Assembly (NCBI GenBank): GCA_045125245.1
Contig: JBGVNF010000118.1
Span: forward strand, 2,378-66,377
Direction: 5' to 3'
DNA: 64,000 bases
DNA from: Lachnospiraceae bacterium
GTDB taxonomy: Bacteria; Bacillota; Clostridia; Lachnospirales; Lachnospiraceae
In this document: positions 5,236 through 60,884 of the stretch, piece after piece
Position numbering within the stretch: the first letter of the stretch is position 1
Layout: the number at the start of each line of letters is the position of its first letter
The notes under the pieces: model-generated
Told to the model about the DNA's origin: nothing
Seen by the model: only the letters and a program-made list of their open reading frames with translations
The model's database searches: none
Made by a program: the position numbers and the translations under genes

Positions 5236-5342
5236 AAATTTTTCTTCCTTATATAAATATTATTTTGTAGTTGTTGTTTAAATAGTAGTTAAATACACAA
5301 TAATTATAACGGGTAGATATATATGTGTCAATTGAGTTTCTA

Positions 5343-5405
5343 CTATATTATAATGTGTTTGTTCTATATGATAATGTGTTTGTTCTATATTATAATATGT
5401 TTCTT
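5343..5405. repeat. 3 x 21-bp tandem direct repeat
   Basis: CTATATTATAATGTGTTTGTT / CTATATGATAATGTGTTTGTT / CTATATTATAATATGTTTCTT in the divergent intergenic region between the methyltransferase gene and rpsJ. Confidence 0.9.
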
Positions 5406-5537
5406 ATAAATGTTAATATTTGATTTGAAAAGTCACTTATCAAAAAAATTATTAGCCTACATTATTATAGAAGAAATCCAAAAATAATATTATGAAAAAA
5501 ACTTATAAAAAAATTTCAAAAAAATGTAAAAAAGTAC

Positions 5538-5574: not shown

Positions 5575-5809
5575 CTGTGACATTGATAGCGTAGAAACGA
5601 GAGGTTGCTGCTAGAAAATAGCAGGTTTTCCGTGGAGCGAATGTCAAGTTAGGAAACTGGCGACAAGTCACTGTACAAGAAAATCGTCCGTAATAATACG
5701 GAAACAACGTGTGAAACTTGTAAAGAAATTTACGACACACACGGAAGAGTGTACAGTCACCGCTTGTCGTACTTAAATCAAAAAGTGCGAAAAGGAGGCG
5801 ACTTTTTTT
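5575..5809 (+). promoter_or_regulatory. long structured 5' leader of rpsJ (S10 operon)
   Basis: Hairpin CTGCTA/TAGCAG (5608-5624) followed by GTTTT. Long-range helices 5661-5667/5763-5769 and 5670-5676/5751-5757 enclose hairpins TCCGTA/TACGGA (5687-5702) and CGTGTG...CACACG (5708-5743), with an inner TTGTAAA/TTTACGA stem. Confidence 0.5.
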
Positions 5810-12778: not shown

Positions 12779-12837
12779 GTTCAAAATTGCTAAGCAATTT
12801 TGAACAGCTCGAGCGGGAGCGAGAGCCCCTGCCAAAG
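12779..12837 (+). repeat. intergenic repeat module: palindrome plus TTTTGAACAG-hairpin unit
   Basis: GTTCAAAATTGC/GCAATTTTGAAC palindrome (12779-12805), then GCTC-GAGCGGGAGCGA-GAGC hairpin (12807-26) and CCCCTGCCAAAG; homologous to 18775-18872. Confidence 0.85.
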
Positions 12838-18774: not shown

Positions 18775-18872
18775 GTTCAAAGTTTCGTAGAAACTTTGAA
18801 CAGTCCGAACGGAAGTGAGGACCCCCGCCAAAATTTTGAACAGTCCGAACGGAAGTGAGGACCCTAGCCAAG
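18775..18872 (+). repeat. intergenic repeat module: palindrome plus two tandem TTTGAACAGTCCGAACGGAAGTGAGGACCC units
   Basis: GTTCAAAGTTTC/GAAACTTTGAAC palindrome (18775-18801). Units sit at 18795-18832 and 18834-18872, each with a GTCC-GAACGGAAGTGA-GGAC hairpin. Confidence 0.9.
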
Positions 18873-51058: not shown

Positions 51059-52979
51059 GCCAAAGAATATGGGCAAGGGTATGCCGATGGGAAAACCAGG
51101 ATTTAATGGTGGAACATTTAAACGAGTCTTAAAGATGCTTATGCAGTATTATCCTGTGTTATTTCCTGTGTCTATAGCTTGTATAGTATTTTGTTCTGTT
51201 ACAGCAACACTTCCTGCTATATTCCAGCAGCAGGTAATTGAAGCCATTGAGAAATGGGCGCCAACAGGCGATTGGGCTGGTGCTAGTAAGGTAATCGTAC
51301 CAAAGGTACTTATACTTGCAGGATTTTATGTAATCTCTATTATAGGTATTACACTTCAGTCACAGCTTATGGTTTATATAACTCAGGGATTTTTAAATAA
51401 ATCCAGAGTAAGTATGTTTAATGGTATGCAGAATCTTCCTGTTAAGTATTTTGATACGCATAAGCATGGAGATATAATGAGTCATTATACAAATGATATT
51501 GATACATTAAGAATGCTTATTTCTCAAGCATTACCTACATTGATACAGTCTTCGATTGTTATAATGTGTGTACTTGGAATTATGATTTATTATAGTATTC
51601 CAATGACGTTTGTTGTGCTTGTAGGTGTAGTGATTATGCTTATGGTTTCGAAAAAACTTGCAGGTGGTTCGGCGAAGTTCTTTATGAAGCAACAGGTTTC
51701 CATCGGTAAAGCTGAAGGTTATATTCAGGAAATGATGAATGGCCAGAAGGTAATCAAGGTATTCAATCATGAGGATAATGTTAAAGAAGAATTTGATAAG
51801 ATAAACGAAGAATTATGTAATGATAGTTTCAAAGCAAATGCATATGCAAACTGCCTTGGACCAATTATTATGAATATTGGAAATGTTTTATATGTAACAG
51901 TTATAACAATAGGTGGAATTTTACTTGTAACAGGATTTAAGAATTTTAGTATTTCAGGTATTGCTTTTGGTATTAGTATAGTAGTTCCTTTCCTTAACAT
52001 GACAAAGCAGTTTACGGGAAATATCAATACATTCTCGCAGCAAATCAACCATGTAGTAATGGGTCTTGCAGGCGCACAGAGAGTGTTTGAAGTAATGGAT
52101 GCAACTCCTGAAACAGATGATGGATATGTAACACTTGTTAACGCTAAGATTGATGCGGCTGGAAATATTACAGAGGTTCCAGAGCATACAGGTGTATGGG
52201 CATGGAAGCATCCACATGGTGATGGTACACTTACTTATACTAAGCTTGAGGGTGATGTAACACTTGATGATGTAGACTTTGCATACGAGGAAGGCAAGAA
52301 TGTTCTTCATAATGTAACAGTTTTCGCAAAGCCAGGTCAGAAGGTTGCTTTCGTAGGCTCGACAGGTGCGGGTAAGACAACTATCACAAATCTTATCAAT
52401 AGATTTTATGATATCGCAGATGGTAAGATTAGATATGATGGAATCAATATCAATAAGATAAAGAAAGCAGACTTAAGACGTTCCTTAGGAATCGTTTTAC
52501 AGGAGACAAATCTCTTTACAGGAAGCGTAATGGACAATATTCGTTACGGTAACTTAGATGCCACAGATGAGCAGTGTATCGATGCAGCTAAGCTTGCAGG
52601 TGCAGATGATTTTATCACACGTTTACCACAGGGTTATGATACACAGCTTTCTAACAATGGTTCAAACCTTTCACAGGGACAGCGCCAGTTAATCGCTATC
52701 GCTAGAGCAGCGGTTGCTGATCCGCCAGTTATGATTCTTGATGAAGCTACATCTTCTATCGATACTAGAACAGAGGCTATTGTACAGCGTGGTATGGATA
52801 AGCTTATGGAAGGTAGGACAGTATTTGTAATTGCACATAGACTTTCTACTATTAAGAATTCAGATGTGATTATGGTGCTTGAACATGGCCGTATTATAGA
52901 GCGTGGAAACCACGAGAAATTGTTAGAGGAGAAGGGAACCTACTATCAGTTATATACAGGTGCCTTCGAACTCGAATAA
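51051..52979 (+). CDS. ABC exporter half-transporter, subunit with consensus ATPase site
   Basis: Walker A GSTGAGKTT, Walker B MILDEATS, H-loop IAHRLS, but signature LSQGQ. ATG 51051 follows GGAAGGAGG and overlaps the upstream stop; the track start 50952 lies inside the upstream gene. Confidence 0.92.
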   Translation: MSKPKNMGKGMPMGKPGFNGGTFKRVLKMLMQYYPVLFPVSIACIVFCSVTATLPAIFQQQVIEAIEKWAPTGDWAGASKVIVPKVLILAGFYVISIIGITLQSQLMVYITQGFLNKSRVSMFNGMQNLPVKYFDTHKHGDIMSHYTNDIDTLRMLISQALPTLIQSSIVIMCVLGIMIYYSIPMTFVVLVGVVIMLMVSKKLAGGSAKFFMKQQVSIGKAEGYIQEMMNGQKVIKVFNHEDNVKEEFDKINEELCNDSFKANAYANCLGPIIMNIGNVLYVTVITIGGILLVTGFKNFSISGIAFGISIVVPFLNMTKQFTGNINTFSQQINHVVMGLAGAQRVFEVMDATPETDDGYVTLVNAKIDAAGNITEVPEHTGVWAWKHPHGDGTLTYTKLEGDVTLDDVDFAYEEGKNVLHNVTVFAKPGQKVAFVGSTGAGKTTITNLINRFYDIADGKIRYDGININKIKKADLRRSLGIVLQETNLFTGSVMDNIRYGNLDATDEQCIDAAKLAGADDFITRLPQGYDTQLSNNGSNLSQGQRQLIAIARAAVADPPVMILDEATSSIDTRTEAIVQRGMDKLMEGRTVFVIAHRLSTIKNSDVIMVLEHGRIIERGNHEKLLEEKGTYYQLYTGAFELE

Positions 52980-52988
52980 AAATGAAAG

Positions 52989-53022
52989 GTAGATTAGGTG
53001 TCAAAATCCTAATCTACTTTTT
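52989..53022 (+). terminator. intrinsic terminator after the ABC operon
   Basis: GTAGATTAGG / CCTAATCTAC stem followed by TTTTT; its loop and 3' arm overlap the left end of repeat copy A. Confidence 0.75.
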
Positions 53023-53292
53023 GTTTTGGCAGGTTATAAAATTTATACTGTATTTTTACATACTTCGTATATTTGATTTTCTAAATACTTTGAATTGAAT
53101 TTATTATGACGGACGTGACCGGCGTCTATTCGCCCTCCATGGCTCAGAGACGCCTTTTTTCAACATCGTGTTGAAAAATCACTGTTTAAAGAACAAAGTA
53201 TTAAGAAAATCTAAATACACTACGCTATCGTAAAAGATACAGTATAAATTTTTATAACCTGCAGTTTAAATTGTGATAGGATTTTGACACCT
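52998..53292 (+). repeat. nested-palindrome element, copy A (MITE-like or structured-RNA-like)
   Basis: Ends GGTGTCAAAATCCT (52998-53011) / AGGATTTTGACACC (53279-53292); imperfect arms of about 60 bp (53031-53092 vs 53195-53259). Central module has hairpins GGCGTCT/AGACGCC plus T6 (53121-53160) and TTTTCAACA/TGTTGAAAA (53157-53177). Confidence 0.85.
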
Positions 53293-53310: not shown

Positions 53311-53332
53311 GGTGATAGGATTTTGACATCCA
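53311..53332 (+). repeat. solo extra copy of the element A right end
   Basis: GGTGATAGGATTTTGACATCC repeats GTGATAGGATTTTGACACC (53274-53292). Confidence 0.8.
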
Positions 53333-53413
53333 AATTTTTTTTTTGATATTTTCTATAATATTTTATGAGTGTGAATCGAGTTCGAAGGCACCTAGAGAAG
53401 GTGGAGCCTTAGT

Positions 53414-54376
53414 TTATAAATCTACGGACTTCATGATGTCTTTAAGAAGTCTTGCGGAGTTTTTGAGGGCTTCGATTTCTTCGTCGTCTAAGGAGATTGG
53501 TACTTTGGTTTCGACGCCGTCTTTTCCTACGATGGCTGGGAAGCTTAAGGCTATGTCTTCTATGCCATATTCTCCATGCATCATATTTGAAATAGGTAGG
53601 ATGGATTTTTCGTCTCGAAGGATTACTTCACAGATTCTTCTTACAGAGACAGCGATGCCGTAGTAGGTTGCTTGCTTTCTTTTTATTATTTCGTAGGCGC
53701 TATTTTTTACTTTGTCTCCGATTTTATCCATTTCTTCATCATGACTATAATGACCACGCATTTCACAGAAATCATCAATAGGGATGCCTGAAATGTTTGC
53801 ACTGCTCCAAGCTGCGATTTCACTGTCGCCGTGTTCGCCGATGATAAAGGCGTGTACGCTTCGGCTGTCTACGCCGAGAAGCTCTCCTGTTTGATATTTA
53901 AGGCGCGCGGTGTCTAGAACAGTGCCTGAGCCTATGACATGGTTTTCAGGGAGGCCTGAAAGCTTCATAGCTACATAAGTTAGGATATCTACAGGATTAG
54001 ATACGATTAGAAGAATACCGTTGAAGCATCTTTTTGATATTTCTGGGATGATACTTTTGTAGATAGCTACATTTTTGTGGACTAGGTCTAGGCGTGTTTC
54101 ACCAGGTTTCTGGTTTGCACCTGCTGTGATAATTATAATTTCTGCGCCACATATATCGTCATAGGTGCCTGCGTATATCTTCATTGGTTTACCAAATGGT
54201 ACACCGTGGCTTATGTCCATAGCTTCACCTTCGGCTTTTGTATGGTCTACATCAATAAGTACGATTTCGGAAAAAAGACCACTTTCCATTAAACTGAAAA
54301 CGGAAGCTGAGCCTACATAACCGCAGCCTATCATTACAGCTTTTCGAGTGTTGATAATAGTGTTTGAATTATTCAT
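53414..54376 (-). CDS. ldh: L-lactate dehydrogenase
   Basis: NAD motif GCGYVGSA, catalytic-region GEHGDSE, LDH length (320 aa); GGAGGG RBS. Confidence 0.95.
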   Translation of the reverse strand: MNNSNTIINTRKAVMIGCGYVGSASVFSLMESGLFSEIVLIDVDHTKAEGEAMDISHGVPFGKPMKIYAGTYDDICGAEIIIITAGANQKPGETRLDLVHKNVAIYKSIIPEISKRCFNGILLIVSNPVDILTYVAMKLSGLPENHVIGSGTVLDTARLKYQTGELLGVDSRSVHAFIIGEHGDSEIAAWSSANISGIPIDDFCEMRGHYSHDEEMDKIGDKVKNSAYEIIKRKQATYYGIAVSVRRICEVILRDEKSILPISNMMHGEYGIEDIALSFPAIVGKDGVETKVPISLDDEEIEALKNSARLLKDIMKSVDL

Positions 54377-55680: not shown

Positions 55681-56100
55681 ATGGAAGGACTCATAGATGC
55701 AGCAGATAAGGCTACAGAGCAGGATGTGACACTTATTTACTTAGACCTTAATAAGTTTAAATATGTCAATGATACATATGGACACGAGGCGGGAGATAAA
55801 GTATTAAAGATATATAGCAAGAGCTTAAGGAAGATTTTTGGCAAGATTGGCTTCGTGGGACGTATGGGTGGCGATGAGTTTATGGTTATTCTTACGGGAA
55901 TTAACAAGGATATTGCTAAGAAATTATGTGAAAAGCTTCAAGAAGTGCTTGCAGTGGATAGCAAGGAGTTGTATTTTGAATATACCATAAGTACATCTTA
56001 TGGAATTGCTACGAGAGCAAGAGGAAGCTATACATCTATAGAGGATGTTATGGTGGAAGCGGACGAGAGTATGTATAAGTTCAAAGAAGAACATAGATAG
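55681..56100 (+). CDS. stand-alone, N-terminally truncated GGDEF domain (possible gene remnant)
   Basis: Has IYLDLNKFKYVNDTYGHEAGDKVL and GRMGGDEFMVIL, but lacks the usual D.LT.L.NR start and any sensor domain. No RBS before the ATG; a VLNRLL-like peptide followed by two stops sits just upstream in another frame. Confidence 0.5.
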   Translation: MEGLIDAADKATEQDVTLIYLDLNKFKYVNDTYGHEAGDKVLKIYSKSLRKIFGKIGFVGRMGGDEFMVILTGINKDIAKKLCEKLQEVLAVDSKELYFEYTISTSYGIATRARGSYTSIEDVMVEADESMYKFKEEHR

Positions 56101-56233: not shown

Positions 56234-57652
56234 ATGAGAAAGACAAAGATTATATGTACATTAGGGCCTTCTACAGATAAAGAAGGAATACTTGAAAAAT
56301 TAGTACAAGCAGGTATGAATACAGCGCGTATGAATTTCTCACATAGCACATATGAGGATCACAGCAGAAGATTAGAGGAAATTAAGGAACTTAGAAAGAA
56401 GTACAATAAGCACATTTCAGTACTTCTTGACACTAAGGGACCTGAGATTCGTACAAAGAATTTCAAGGATGGCAAGGTATTTCTTACAGAGGGACAGGAA
56501 TTTATGCTTTCTTGTGAGGATATAGAGGGAACTGAGACAGGCGTAAGTGTTACATACACTGACCTTTATAAAGAGGTTAAGCAGGGAACAGTTATTCTTA
56601 TCGATGATGGTCTTGTAGAGCTTAGAGTGGCTCGTATTGAAGGCAAAAATATTCATTGTATAGTTAAGAATGATGGATATGTAGGAAATCACAAGGGTAT
56701 CAATGTTCCAGATGTTCACATTAATATGCCTTTCGTAAGCGATAAGGATAGAGAAGATATTTTATTTGGTATCGAAAATGATGTAGATTTTATAGCAGCT
56801 TCATTTGTTCGTTCTGCAGATGATGTTAAGGAGATTAGAACTCTTCTTGATGAGAATGGGGGTAAAGCTATTAAGATTATTTCCAAGATTGAGAATGGTG
56901 AAGGTGTAGAAAATATTGACGAGATTATAGAAGTATCTGATGGTATCATGATAGCCAGAGGTGATATGGGTGTTGAGCTTCCAGTAGAAGAGGTACCTAT
57001 CGTTCAGAAGATGATTATTCGTAAGGTGTATGAAGCTGGAAAGCTTGTTATCACAGCTACACAGATGCTTGAGTCAATGATTAATAATCCTAGACCAACT
57101 AGAGCAGAGGCGACAGATATCGCTAACGCTATTTACGATGGAACAAGTGCTATTATGCTTTCAGGTGAAACTGCTGCAGGACATTTCCCAGTAGAGGCAG
57201 TTAGAACTATGGTAAGAATTGCAGAAAGAGCAGAAAATGATATTAATTATAAGAATCGTTTCTTTAATTTAGAGAAGAAAAAGAGTCCTAATACAACAGA
57301 TGCTATATGTCATGCTACTTGTACAACTGCTTATGATTTAGGAGCAAGTGCTATTGTTACAGTTACGAAGTCTGGTACATCAGCTAGAATGATTTCTAGA
57401 TATCGTCCAGATTGTATGATTATTGCTGGTAGTACAGATGAGAAGGTTTGCCGTCAGCTTAATCTTTCGTGGGGTGTTAACCCTATTCTCTTAAAGGAGA
57501 AGCAGGACGTATTCAGTTTGTTTGAACATGTTGTTGAGATAGGTAAGAGACAGGGATATCTTGATATTGGACAGCTAGTGGTTATCACATCAGGTGTGCC
57601 AATGGGTATTTCTGGAACAACTAATATGCTTAAAGTTCACGTTGTTGACTAA
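56234..57652 (+). CDS. pyk: pyruvate kinase
   Basis: Conserved MRKTKI.CT.GP...NFSH, MIARGDMGVE and GETA.G motifs; 472 aa. Confidence 0.97.
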   Translation: MRKTKIICTLGPSTDKEGILEKLVQAGMNTARMNFSHSTYEDHSRRLEEIKELRKKYNKHISVLLDTKGPEIRTKNFKDGKVFLTEGQEFMLSCEDIEGTETGVSVTYTDLYKEVKQGTVILIDDGLVELRVARIEGKNIHCIVKNDGYVGNHKGINVPDVHINMPFVSDKDREDILFGIENDVDFIAASFVRSADDVKEIRTLLDENGGKAIKIISKIENGEGVENIDEIIEVSDGIMIARGDMGVELPVEEVPIVQKMIIRKVYEAGKLVITATQMLESMINNPRPTRAEATDIANAIYDGTSAIMLSGETAAGHFPVEAVRTMVRIAERAENDINYKNRFFNLEKKKSPNTTDAICHATCTTAYDLGASAIVTVTKSGTSARMISRYRPDCMIIAGSTDEKVCRQLNLSWGVNPILLKEKQDVFSLFEHVVEIGKRQGYLDIGQLVVITSGVPMGISGTTNMLKVHVVD

Positions 57653-57659
57653 AATTTAT

Positions 57660-57693
57660 GAAACCCGCCATACTATTCGTGTGGCGGGTTTTA
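57660..57693 (+). terminator. intrinsic terminator after pyk
   Basis: AAACCCGCCA / TGGCGGGTTT stem followed by T. Confidence 0.8.
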
Positions 57694-57706
57694 CATTGTT
57701 GAATGA

Positions 57707-58007
57707 GGTGTCAAAAACCTTAATTAAAAGTATATGAGTCATATTTGGCAAAGTTTATACTATGTTTTTCACATGCTTCGTATATTTGATTTTCTAAATA
57801 CTTTGAGAAAGAGTTTGATTACGTACGTGACCGGCACATATTCGCCATCCATGGCTCAGATGTGCCTTTTTCTAACATCGTGTTAGAAAATCACTAGTAT
57901 AGAACAAAGTATTAAGAAAATCTAAATATACTACGCTATCGTGAAAGTACATAGTATAAATTTGCAAAATATGACAAATATAGTATTGTAAAAGGTTTTT
58001 GACACCT
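57707..58007 (+). repeat. nested-palindrome element, copy B
   Basis: Ends AGGTGTCAAAAACCTT (57707-57722) / AAGGTTTTTGACACCT (57992-58007); same arm and central modules as copy A, with compensated stem differences. Confidence 0.85.
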
Positions 58008-58097
58008 TATTTACGTTGTGACAGTAAGCAATGAAAACTTCATGTGAATAGATGGAGGATGCGAGTTTTATAAATTTTAGGATAAGGGGGAGTGTGC

Positions 58098-60238: not shown

Positions 60239-60696
60239 TGCGTTTAACTACATTATGTTATATAGAAAAAGATGAAAACTACCTTATGCTTCATAGAGTA
60301 AAGAAGGTCAACGACGAAAACCATGATAAATGGATAGGCGTAGGAGGTAAGTTTGAAGAAGGAGAAAGTCCAGAGGATTGTTTACTTCGCGAGGTATACG
60401 AAGAGACAGGACTTACTCTTACGTCATACAAATATAGAGGTCTAGTAACTTTTATCTCAGATCAATGGGAGAATGAATATATGCATCTTTTTACAGCGAC
60501 GGAGTATGAAGGCGATATAAAAGAATGTGATGAAGGTGAACTAGTGTGGGTACCTAAGAAAGATTTAGACAAGCTTAAATTATGGGAAGGAGATAAAATC
60601 TTTTTAAAGTTACTTGAAGAGGAAGAAAGATTCTTTACATTGAAGCTGACATATGAAGGTGAAGAGCTTGTAGGTGCAGAAACTAAATTATATTAG
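60238..60696 (+). CDS. NUDIX hydrolase, MutT/8-oxo-dGTPase-like
   Basis: NUDIX box GVGGKFEEGESPEDCLLREVYEETGL; start overlaps the upstream stop (TAATG). Confidence 0.85.
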   Translation: MRLTTLCYIEKDENYLMLHRVKKVNDENHDKWIGVGGKFEEGESPEDCLLREVYEETGLTLTSYKYRGLVTFISDQWENEYMHLFTATEYEGDIKECDEGELVWVPKKDLDKLKLWEGDKIFLKLLEEEERFFTLKLTYEGEELVGAETKLY

Positions 60697-60859
60697 GGGA
60701 ATCGAACCCCTATTAATAACGTAACCAGTCATATTTCACAAATTTATGCTGTGATTTTTACGATAGCGGAGAAAATCAAATATTCGTAGTATGTAAAAAT
60801 CATAGTATAAACTTTGTGCAATATGACGTAATGAATTCATCAGGGGTTCGATGCCCCTA
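60694..60859 (-). repeat. nested-palindrome element, copy C (short form, inverted orientation)
   Basis: Ends TAGGGGAATCGAACCCCT (60694-60711) / AGGGGTTCGATGCCCCTA (60842-60859). Inner layers GTCATATTTCACAAATTTAT / ATAAACTTTGTGCAATATGAC and the core TTTATGCTGTGATTTTTACGATAGCG...CGTAGTATGTAAAAATCATAGTATAAA are homologous to the arms of A and B. Confidence 0.8.
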
Positions 60860-60884
60860 AATATAAACATATAGGAGGTAACTT

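Follow-up and report, generated by a model that had tools for sequence, protein, structure and literature searches.

The RNA motif TwoAYGGAY goes back to Weinberg et al. (2010, Genome Biol 11:R31; PMC2864571), who rated it a probable RNA that is not cis-regulatory, found in the human gut, in Clostridiales and in gamma-proteobacteria, and whose supplement describes its closing stem P1 as "often very large". No function is assigned to it in the literature mentioning the motif, and Gardner and Eldai (2014; PMC4333381) put forward the hypothesis that it is a CsrA decoy, the GGA motifs of its loops binding a CsrA dimer. Here we report on two repeat copies, A and B, in a stretch of 64,000 nucleotides (nt) from a Lachnospiraceae bacterium (contig JBGVNF010000118.1; the window in what follows). 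Both are genomic instances of TwoAYGGAY (Rfam RF01731) on the minus strand, with scores three times the curated threshold. Taking the evidence together, we think it likely that in both the motif is the apex of a palindrome of about 300 bp that resembles a miniature inverted-repeat transposable element (MITE), acts as a hot spot of rearrangement and is under two layers of constraint. An earlier reading of the letters alone (the original prediction) had proposed a constraint on structure, which stands, an undescribed RNA family and a plus-strand terminator, which do not, and a mobile element, which does in part.

The window was scanned against the covariance models of Rfam 15, in which the gathering score of RF01731 is 43 bits. 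The core of copy A (53060-53227, minus strand) scores 132.3 bits and that of copy B (57773-57938, minus strand) 129.5 bits, each over model positions 1-168 of 168, and neither copy has a plus-strand match even with permissive filters and E-values up to 1. The covariance model thus matches the minus strand alone, and not the plus strand that the original prediction had favoured. The Rfam scan suggested along with the original prediction therefore found a known family, at 132 and 130 bits, and the claim of an undescribed family is refuted by the kind of evidence that the prediction had itself named, a hit to a described one. The strong compensated secondary structure of the copies would suit an undescribed structured small-RNA family, but with full-length matches of this size to a motif published in 2010 and discussed again in 2014 there is next to no chance that they represent one. 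For the same family, the Rfam 15 revision added two covarying pairs to the model, and Rfam assigns it to clan CL00106.

The cmscan alignments place two inverted repeats at the apex of each copy, all on the minus strand. In copy A, hairpin 2 of the Rfam structure (53121-53154; RNA GGCGUCUCUGAGCC-AUGGAG-GGCGAAUAGACGCC) comprises stem 1 and the adjoining loop of the original prediction, and hairpin 1 (53156-53178; loop ACACGAUGU) its stem 2; in copy B the corresponding hairpins lie at 57833-57866 (loop context CCAUGGAUGG) and 57868-57890 (loop ACACGAUGU). What had been seen as a nearly invariant 20-nt loop is, in the Rfam structure, really the upper part of a 15-bp hairpin with a UGGA tetraloop, set within A-UGGA-U. 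The AYGGAY loop of hairpin 2 reads AUGGAU in B and AUGGAG in A, and that of hairpin 1 reads ACGAU in both, one base short; in the alignment of copy A a single-base gap falls on the consensus GGA. Most of the Lachnospiraceae copies collected (among the matches listed) likewise have a hairpin-1 loop without GGA. The copies thus share with the described motif the two-hairpin apex closed by a long P1, the taxa (Clostridiales, human gut) and, as originally reported, a location not consistently in 5′ untranslated regions, and they differ from it in this first AYGGAY loop and in their extent: the Rfam model ends at 168 nt, whereas here the hairpin reaches about 300 nt, with a covarying extension and terminal inverted repeats.

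Copies A (52996-53292, minus strand, 297 nt) and B (57706-58007, minus strand, 302 nt) were found where the original prediction had placed them, and all the stems that it quoted are exact in the sequence. The two are about 84% identical, aligned over some 300 nt, and copy A is homologous end to end with copies from other genomes. Stem 1 is GGCGTCT/AGACGCC in A (53121-53127 and 53148-53154) and GGCACAT/ATGTGCC in B (57833-57839 and 57860-57866), which amounts to three compensated pairs. Two further compensated pairs separate stem 2 of A (TTTTTCAACA/TGTTGAAAAA) from that of B (TTTTCTAACA/TGTTAGAAAA), and two more the outer stems, just outside the Rfam model (TTTATACTGTAT/ATACAGTATAAA in A, TTTATACTATGT/ACATAGTATAAA in B). 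When B is mapped onto the 107 pairs of the minimum-free-energy hairpin of copy A (folded alone), 13 pairs differ on both sides and are still Watson-Crick, compared to about 1.3 expected by chance from the 19% divergence at paired sites. One-sided changes give seven mismatches and two G-U pairs, and two double changes are unpaired. The claim that the differences between A and B are mostly hairpin-preserving is therefore borne out. Each copy folds into a single hairpin or rod (A, -115.6 kcal/mol, z -14.7 against shuffles; B, -115.8 kcal/mol, z -13.8). The differences are stem-compensating, not codon-like, and the open reading frames (ORFs) that overlap the 297 and 302 bp are gene-caller artefacts only.

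Several features point to a unit larger than the Rfam motif. In A and B, P1 extends about 60 bp beyond the motif on each side, up to 14-nt terminal inverted repeats. These repeats, which the original prediction overlooked together with a third copy at 60728-60827, match AGGTGTCAAAAWCC exactly at all four ends of A and B. In copy A they lie at 52996-53009 (AGGTGTCAAAATCC, the RNA 3′ end, which also forms a local hairpin with 53008-53027) and 53279-53292 (GGATTTTGACACCT, the RNA 5′ end), and in copy B at 57706-57719 (AGGTGTCAAAAACC) and 57994-58007 (GGTTTTTGACACCT, an exact match). The window holds six matches to the repeat compared to 0.74 expected, namely the four exact ones, a degenerate one beside A and an unrelated one with two mismatches.

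For comparison, at least 117 loci with the hairpin-2 pattern were collected from species-representative genomes, nearly all of those listed being metagenome-assembled genomes of Lachnospiraceae, several with many copies; L-numbers below label loci of other genomes and strains. The ends of the elements were located by local alignment of the arms, global minimum-free-energy folding of 550-nt windows having been dropped owing to spurious outer pairs. Among the matches listed, a near-perfect palindrome reaches 110-190 nt to either side of the hairpin-2 loop in nearly all of about 96 usable copies. A subset from different genomes shares its termini with the window copies (consensus ATTCGGGTGTCAAAAGG ... 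CCTTTTGACACCCGAAT, with a second, inner repeat GGCAAATTGCACAAA / TTTGTGCAATTTGCC), while other subfamilies, which are defined by their arms, carry arms of their own. In two close relatives (L038 and L097) and in the third copy of the window the GGTGTCAAAA layer is absent, and the element stops at GTCATATT...AATATGAC.

An alignment of 17 full-length copies yields 81 consensus pairs in 11 helices running from the terminal repeats to the apex, with double-sided changes in 63 of them. In this alignment 92% of the cells are paired, compared to 74.7% in column shuffles, none of 500 of which reaches 92%, and to 37-47% when the partners are slid by 1-3 columns. The covariation includes the long closing stem P1, where helices 1-8 are 82-96% paired and most pairs have changed on both sides, as well as the helix of the terminal repeats, in which 17 of 20 pairs show double changes. 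In this lineage of Lachnospiraceae the 168-nt motif is thus only the apex of a non-coding palindromic repeat of about 300 bp, the whole rod being supported by covariation. Compensation between A and B, between the alleles of B described below and across the 17 copies also upholds the original idea that it is secondary structure, and not a peptide, that is selected or maintained.

Whether this structure is kept as RNA or as DNA can be addressed by the direction of imperfect pairs within each copy's own stem. Read on the Rfam strand, the inner part of P1 covered by the model has 71 G-U compared to 22 A-C departures (p = 3e-7), while the outer arms have 156 compared to 132, which is not significant. 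Because of this bias, and because the asymmetric apex is the part of the sequence most conserved in every subfamily, the comparison suggests that apex and inner stem are selected in a strand-specific way, whether as an RNA or as a single strand of DNA. Divergence in the outer stem is about that of neighbouring non-coding DNA, yet this stem remains paired with no strand bias, and could equally reflect a constraint on structure only or repair in DNA templated from arm to arm.

A palindrome acting purely at the DNA level with no RNA function, its arms kept complementary by quasi-palindrome correction or gene conversion, would fit the outer arms well: they lack the strand bias, they diverge like spacer between orthologous alleles with pairing kept, and the deletions, inverted flank copies and inversion seen at these loci are typical of palindromes. 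As an account of the whole element it is unlikely, for copying between arms cannot maintain an asymmetric apex, and it is the loops, the three-way junction and the single-stranded joiners that are best conserved in distant genomes; the inner stem is moreover strongly strand-biased, and covariation in the core is supported independently by Rfam. We therefore keep to two layers, an apex with inner stem and an outer stem. With low confidence, the conserved apex might be a protein-recognition module, for a mobilising enzyme or for a host RNA-binding protein; the most likely role we can propose is that the A-UGGA-U hairpin loop and the junction would be presented to such a protein.

Three candidates for further conserved signals were set aside. 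A TATACT box lying directly before the Rfam motif, considered as a promoter, is specific to the subfamily. The sequence TAGCGT resembles the CS-6 of a single-strand origin of the ssoA type, but is not conserved beyond the subfamily. Finally, 128 similarities upstream of the RNA 5′ end turned out to be a second, divergently oriented copy, and neither a promoter nor a tRNA.

Known CsrA sponge RNAs carry many sites each. Like sponges of the CsrB/RsmZ type, TwoAYGGAY has a GGA in a hairpin loop with a CANGGAUG-like context; it differs from them in having one or two candidate sites rather than many, one of these being lost in most copies, and in being embedded in a mobile-looking palindrome, with CsrA binding only hypothesised. 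The family consensus loops CAUGGAUG fit the CsrA-site consensus (PMC4333381), hairpin 2 of copy B reads CCAUGGAUGG, and hairpin 1 of some members of the subfamily contains CAGGACG, all of which would agree with a CsrA-sequestering small RNA of Clostridia. However, the hairpin-1 loop ACACGAUGU has no GGA in A, B and most of the listed Lachnospiraceae copies, which leaves one site per RNA, and in copy A the closing A-U of the remaining site is replaced (AUGGAG). No experimental support for a decoy was found in the literature mentioning TwoAYGGAY. The proposal thus seems to suit the family consensus but to fit A and B poorly, and since it also leaves the 300-bp palindrome, the terminal repeats, the target duplications and the divergent pairs unexplained, we regard it as an improbable account of these copies.

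The original prediction had also drawn attention to a run of T following stem 1 on the plus strand. The run is present, T5-6 directly after hairpin 2, but a scan for the intrinsic terminator consensus flagged nothing on the plus strand at 53121-53160 or 57833-57871, where the hairpin is long and interrupted. A plus-strand intrinsic terminator, or a hairpin stabilising the mRNAs of the ABC (ATP-binding cassette) transporter and pyk genes in the manner of REP or ERIC sequences, would agree with the T-run, with the position of both copies just downstream of plus-strand genes and with the finding that elsewhere (among the matches listed) one end of the palindrome typically lies no more than about 30 nt from the end of a gene; the inversion described below for the third copy would then toggle a one-way terminator on and off. 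Nonetheless we consider it quite improbable, and the terminator reading does not hold up as originally given: the covariance model matches the minus strand only, the G-U bias of the inner stem (71:22) favours the same strand, and the T-run derives from the A/U-rich hairpin-1 stem peculiar to this subfamily and is missing in the others. Besides being unflagged by the terminator scan, the site at copy B follows a pyk gene that has a terminator of its own at 57661-57691, and the 66 listed copies are oriented at random to their neighbouring genes.

Among described bacterial repeats, the nearest in overall character are transcribed MITEs and palindromic repeats such as Correia/NEMIS (Neisseria), RUP (Streptococcus pneumoniae) and ERIC/IRU (enterobacteria). 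Like these, the present element is small and non-coding, with terminal inverted repeats and, in related copies, short target duplications, and its many copies are scattered between genes in either direction; the unit as a whole forms a hairpin, and internally deleted variants of it exist. In classical MITEs the termini are conserved and the middle drifts, whereas here it is the asymmetric centre that is most conserved and covaries like a functional RNA; from Correia and RUP the element is also set apart by its length of about 300 bp, another terminal sequence and an 8-bp duplication. The likenesses offered in the original prediction, to REP/BIME, Correia and IS200/IS605 PATE elements, fail on defining features. 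REP/BIME sequences are imperfect palindromes of 20-40 nt, often clustered and associated with a RAYT (Y1 HUH) transposase, while the present unit is about 300 nt long with an asymmetric structured apex. Correia elements, of 100-155 bp with 26-bp terminal repeats and a TA target duplication, differ in size, termini, duplication length (about 8 bp here) and host, Neisseria. IS200/IS605 PATEs have subterminal hairpins with neither terminal inverted repeats nor target duplications, and here terminal inverted repeats are present, with 8-bp duplications in relatives. We know of no parent insertion sequence for the TwoAYGGAY element.

The evidence for mobility comes mostly from other genomes and, in this paragraph, refers to the matches listed. 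Direct repeats of at least 7/8 flank 15 of 96 copies, compared to five expected from mismatched flank pairs, and perfect 8-bp repeats flank three of them (L025, TTTTTAAG; L069, ATCCTATG; L074, TTGATATG), compared to 0.1 expected. There are multiple copies per genome, and their orientation is random, the downstream gene being on the same strand in 30 cases and on the opposite strand in 36, the upstream gene in 28 and 38. One locus (L043) carries a core-less derivative of 150 nt with intact ends and a flanking repeat. Because of the terminal repeats, the duplications of about 8 bp in relatives, the multiple copies, the subfamilies and the deleted derivatives, we infer that the element is MITE-like, though not a proven MITE. 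The hairpin-dependent mobile element of the original prediction is thus supported by terminal repeats, 8-bp flanking repeats in relatives, multiple copies, deleted derivatives and strain polymorphism, but with neither a transposase identified nor a clean insertion or empty site.

A further peculiarity is that TwoAYGGAY copies often come in close pairs, less than 700 nt apart, and that these are divergent. Among the matches listed this holds for 17 of 17 pairs, in which the RNA 5′ ends face each other (L002, L009, L018, L024, L039, L042, L054, L067, L068, L071, L076-L078, L086, L087, L095 and L113), and 60 other copies are single. Lachnospira sp. RGIG8763 has three loci with the same two-copy arrangement, the spacer between the copies being non-conserved. 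About 6.6 kb from the pair at L113 lies a group II intron catalytic domain (64-138; RF00029, 45 bits), which is probably unrelated. Searches beyond the collected loci gave little. Neither the core pattern nor the 18-nt terminal repeat has a match in the viral contigs of IMG/VR, and a viral origin was set aside. Among plasmids the element itself is unmatched, and the consensus end matched only another copy, unannotated and with no transposase, on a Roseburia megaplasmid. A literature search on MITEs of Lachnospiraceae returned nothing relevant.

The loci of other assemblies of the species were fetched by means of exact copies of the pyk, ldh, NUDIX and ABC proteins of the window; the exact 399-amino-acid (aa) protein encoded between B and the third copy, C, has no match on record. 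The comparison of strains that had been suggested as a check did reveal polymorphism, at all three loci, in the form of deletions, replacement and inversion and not of insertion with an empty site. Locus A, between the ABC transporter and ldh genes, has three alleles. A long one is found in the window and five other assemblies (L129, L131, L136, L137 and L164) and a short one in eight (L122, L127, L128, L132-L135 and L165), the two differing by a 380-bp deletion bounded by TTATAAA direct repeats at 53034-53040 and 53414-53420 (polymorphic segment 53034-53420). Of the element, 45 nt survive in the short allele, the left terminal repeat among them. The third allele (L163, 3430-3866) has a different element in the ABC-ldh spacer, with other arms and another hairpin 2, which implies that copies have been replaced or exchanged here. 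The same allele also explains an orphan in the window, a second degenerate right-end repeat (a direct repeat at 53312-53346, with a two-mismatch match to the terminal repeat, GGATTTTGACATCC, at 53318-53331), as the right end of this alternative element, for the L163 allele ends in exactly the 53312-53346 repeat and then continues with the same flank as the window.

A related species (L149; ABC gene with 86% nucleotide identity) has an element at the same position as A, and because of this orthologous copy we take copy A to be ancestral and the short allele to be a deletion. The short ABC-ldh allele was accordingly discarded as an empty site, both for the 45 nt that it keeps and for the element in L149. 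The pyk orthologues of related species have a different downstream gene order and offered no empty site.

Copy B is present in 10 of 10 strains, as two main haplotypes that diverge by about 10% across the entire spacer between pyk and CBAH. These orthologous alleles provide the strongest test of compensation. They differ by eight compensated pairs (three in hairpin 2, two in hairpin 1, one in the outer stem and two in the terminal repeats), where about 0.4 would be expected by chance, and by four one-sided changes that break pairs. Hairpin 2 of haplotype 2 is GGCGTCT/AGACGCC, the same stem as in copy A. The terminal repeats are AGGTGTCAAAAACC/GGTTTTTGACACCT in haplotype 1 and AGATGTCAAAAGCC/GGCTTTTGACATCT in haplotype 2, the changes in the left repeat matching those in the right. 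Upstream of pyk, about 1.5 kb from copy B, the window has a gene for a 139-aa GGDEF fragment (55681-56100). At L118-L137 this second spot is structurally polymorphic too, the gene being called as 469 aa (dCache and GGDEF), as 338-343 aa (dCache only) or as split ORFs.

Further rearrangements are seen at locus C, between the NUDIX and GH36 genes. In the window, copy C (60728-60827, plus strand) keeps both arms, but the TwoAYGGAY core has been lost in a 138-nt deletion of the apex, with its junction at about 60771/60772 and AGAA microhomology, and it is without GGTGTCAAAA termini. This allele is shared by three other strains, while seven of 10 other strains (L153, L155-L158, L160 and L162) have the full element. 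The unit is bracketed by a host hairpin termed T1 (TTAGGGGAATCGAACCCCT, 60693-60711, plus strand), which overlaps the NUDIX stop codon, and by its inverted copy T1′ (AGGGGTTCGATGCCCCTAA, 60842-60860, 18/19), which form the left and right edges of an invertible segment. Compared with L153 and L156, L155 and L157 carry the 272 nt between them as the reverse complement (259 of 272 positions identical that way round, 199 of 272 directly), and the Rfam motif is found on opposite strands at the same coordinates. The breakpoints lie inside the 19-nt flank repeats.

Invertons are segments flanked by inverted repeats that are flipped by site-specific invertases in gut bacteria. Locus C is like them in being an intergenic segment with inverted repeats of about 19 nt, present in both orientations in one species; both orientations with inverted-repeat bounds are found at C only, and were not seen at A or B, which have a single orientation in 10 to 14 strains. 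It is unlike them in that the flank repeats are locus-specific copies of host gene ends, and hence no common recombinase site, in that no invertase gene lies nearby and in that flipping appears rare. Nothing suggests a dedicated invertase with a shared recombination site: A, B and C each have different flank repeats, and there is no recombinase among the neighbours.

The cassette might instead be a recombinase-independent switch for phase variation, its orientation deciding whether transcription from the upstream gene reads through into the downstream one. Natural strains do carry C both ways round, comparable flank repeats of 18-20 nt exist at A and B, and the apex is directional, with a T-run after the hairpin on one strand only. 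Still, such a switch seems very unlikely, since A and B occur in one orientation, the 13 differences in 272 positions between the two orientations of C imply that flipping is not frequent, and most copies elsewhere (among the matches listed) have no flank repeats.

All three loci have flank repeats copied from the ends of host genes. The final codons of the ABC transporter gene (G A F E L E; 52958-52975, plus strand) form, at A, the left arm of an 18-nt perfect inverted repeat, the right arm of which, an inverted copy of the 3′ end of the gene, lies at 53376-53393 (18/18). About 115 of 120 homologues share the C-terminus ...YTGAFELE, so it is the coding copy that is original; the copy at 53376-53393 is present in the window and in L163 and absent at the L149 locus, and because L149 has the element, it arose after insertion. 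At B, the host flank (57649-57705, plus strand) comprises the last base of pyk, the stop codon, the terminator hairpin at 57661-57691 and spacer, and a degenerate inverted copy of it at 58008-58080 aligns end to end with its reverse complement, with a block of 18/20 at 58061-58080; a more distant orthologous locus (L148) keeps a better inverted copy of this pyk flank. The GC skew of the plus strand, +0.13 to +0.35 throughout, and the ORFs, 30 of 37 of at least 200 codons being on that strand, indicate that it is the leading strand, with forks moving from left to right. At all three loci the original flank lies upstream and the inverted copy downstream, though C points opposite to A and B. A fixed polarity of the flank copies relative to the RNA strand is therefore contradicted by copy C, while a polarity set by the direction of replication fits all three (n = 3). 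An inverted duplication of the flank coupled to insertion was likewise discarded as a rule, as L149 has no inverted block, which places it after insertion, and few copies elsewhere have one.

Rearrangements by template switching are known in which snap-back synthesis gives tandem inversion duplications in Salmonella, and in which hairpins are deleted between short direct repeats. The present loci share with them deletions that end in direct repeats of 4-7 nt within the hairpin or at it, the copying in inverted form of the flank lying upstream in replication, and inversion between the resulting repeats. The difference is that these are mutational mechanisms and not a family of elements, while here one dispersed, conserved hairpin would nucleate them repeatedly. 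On such a scheme a nascent strand would fold back at the hairpin and copy its own just-made flank in inverted form to the other side; the flank repeats so created would then permit inversion of the whole unit, and the long palindrome would in general be a hot spot of replication-linked rearrangement, including deletions between short direct repeats. Taken to its conclusion, TwoAYGGAY would be no small-RNA gene in its own right but the conserved tip of a palindrome that is mobile and self-extending: once inserted, its hairpin would cause the replisome to copy the host gene end inverted, and the locus-specific inverted repeats so made would let the cassette flip, an idea that we offer as a rather unlikely one.

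A number of observations weigh against a MITE-like palindrome with a strand-specific apex that provokes rearrangement, or at least against parts of it. Neither the neighbouring genes of the window nor at least 117 8-kb loci, viral contigs and plasmids revealed a transposase with the same termini, and the neighbouring genes at the loci encode no recombinase. There is no target duplication at A, and at B the best is 7/8 with an offset. No clean empty site was recovered, copy B being present in all strains and the short allele of A a deletion. The outer layer and the inner unit may be separable, given that L038, L097 and copy C are without the GGTGTCAAAA termini, and compensation in the outer arms could have arisen without selection, by repair templated from arm to arm. 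On the RNA side, a promoter scan of the copies found no conserved internal promoter, promoter-like as well as terminator-like matches being at chance level, and an independent transcript of the element is at most putative. In one strain (L125, a scaffold with runs of N) copy B has the left arm of hairpin 2 from haplotype 1 and the right arm from haplotype 2, giving three mismatches, and this broken stem may be a tolerated natural recombinant or an assembly chimera. Finally, the snap-back mechanism, including its argument from the direction of replication, is inferred from three loci, and inverted flank copies are not general: among the matches listed, 5 of 92 copies exceed the 99th percentile of the null.

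Some features of the window lie apart from these elements. Three tandem repeats of 21 nt (TGTGTTTGTTCTATATGATAA-like; 5333-5416 and 5584-5666) are found about 170 nt upstream of an S10-Clostridia ribosomal-protein leader (RF03136, 92.6 bits). In a region of ribosomal-protein genes, a 40-nt unit (AAACTTTGAACAGTCCGAACGGAAGTGAGGACCCCCGCCA) occurs twice in tandem at 18791-18870 and once, at 75% identity, 6 kb upstream (12795-12834). Between 40 and 56 kb, where the GC skew is lower, a block of genes on the minus strand includes a 306-aa ORF with a BRO-N domain (PF02498; 45292-46212, minus strand), a domain common in proteins of phages and mobile elements.

Elsewhere, copies of TwoAYGGAY are seen close to riboswitches. 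On a megaplasmid of Roseburia sp. 831b (NZ_CP135163.1; L138, 2677-3406) one lies between a cobalamin riboswitch and the cobaltochelatase gene that this riboswitch presumably controls, and another (L043, 6217-6624) lies about 130 nt from a thiamine pyrophosphate (TPP) riboswitch. Insertions of the element into regulated 5′ leaders might thus affect the output of riboswitches.

TwoAYGGAY, an orphan among RNA motifs ever since 2010, has the CsrA decoy as its sole functional proposal. The rod of 300 nt that covaries to its terminal repeats, the MITE-like traits, the head-to-head pairs and the rearrangement between strains appear to go beyond the published descriptions that we compared, in which divergent pairing, target duplications and strain-level deletion or inversion are absent. 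They provide clues to function, in the form of candidate partners (a transposase or host protein able to recognise either the apex or the ends) and of the strand to assay, and the natural alleles, with the core deleted, inverted or varied in its stems, offer ready controls. For the bacteria themselves, the elements are hot spots of structural variation beside housekeeping genes in abundant members of the gut flora, which affects strain typing as well as the assembly of metagenomes, in which contigs often break at them. Were the palindrome indeed self-extending, it would be a recombinase-independent route to invertible RNA or terminator cassettes, with effects dependent on orientation, in gut Lachnospiraceae, and the strict head-to-head pairing of neighbouring copies would be another of its products.

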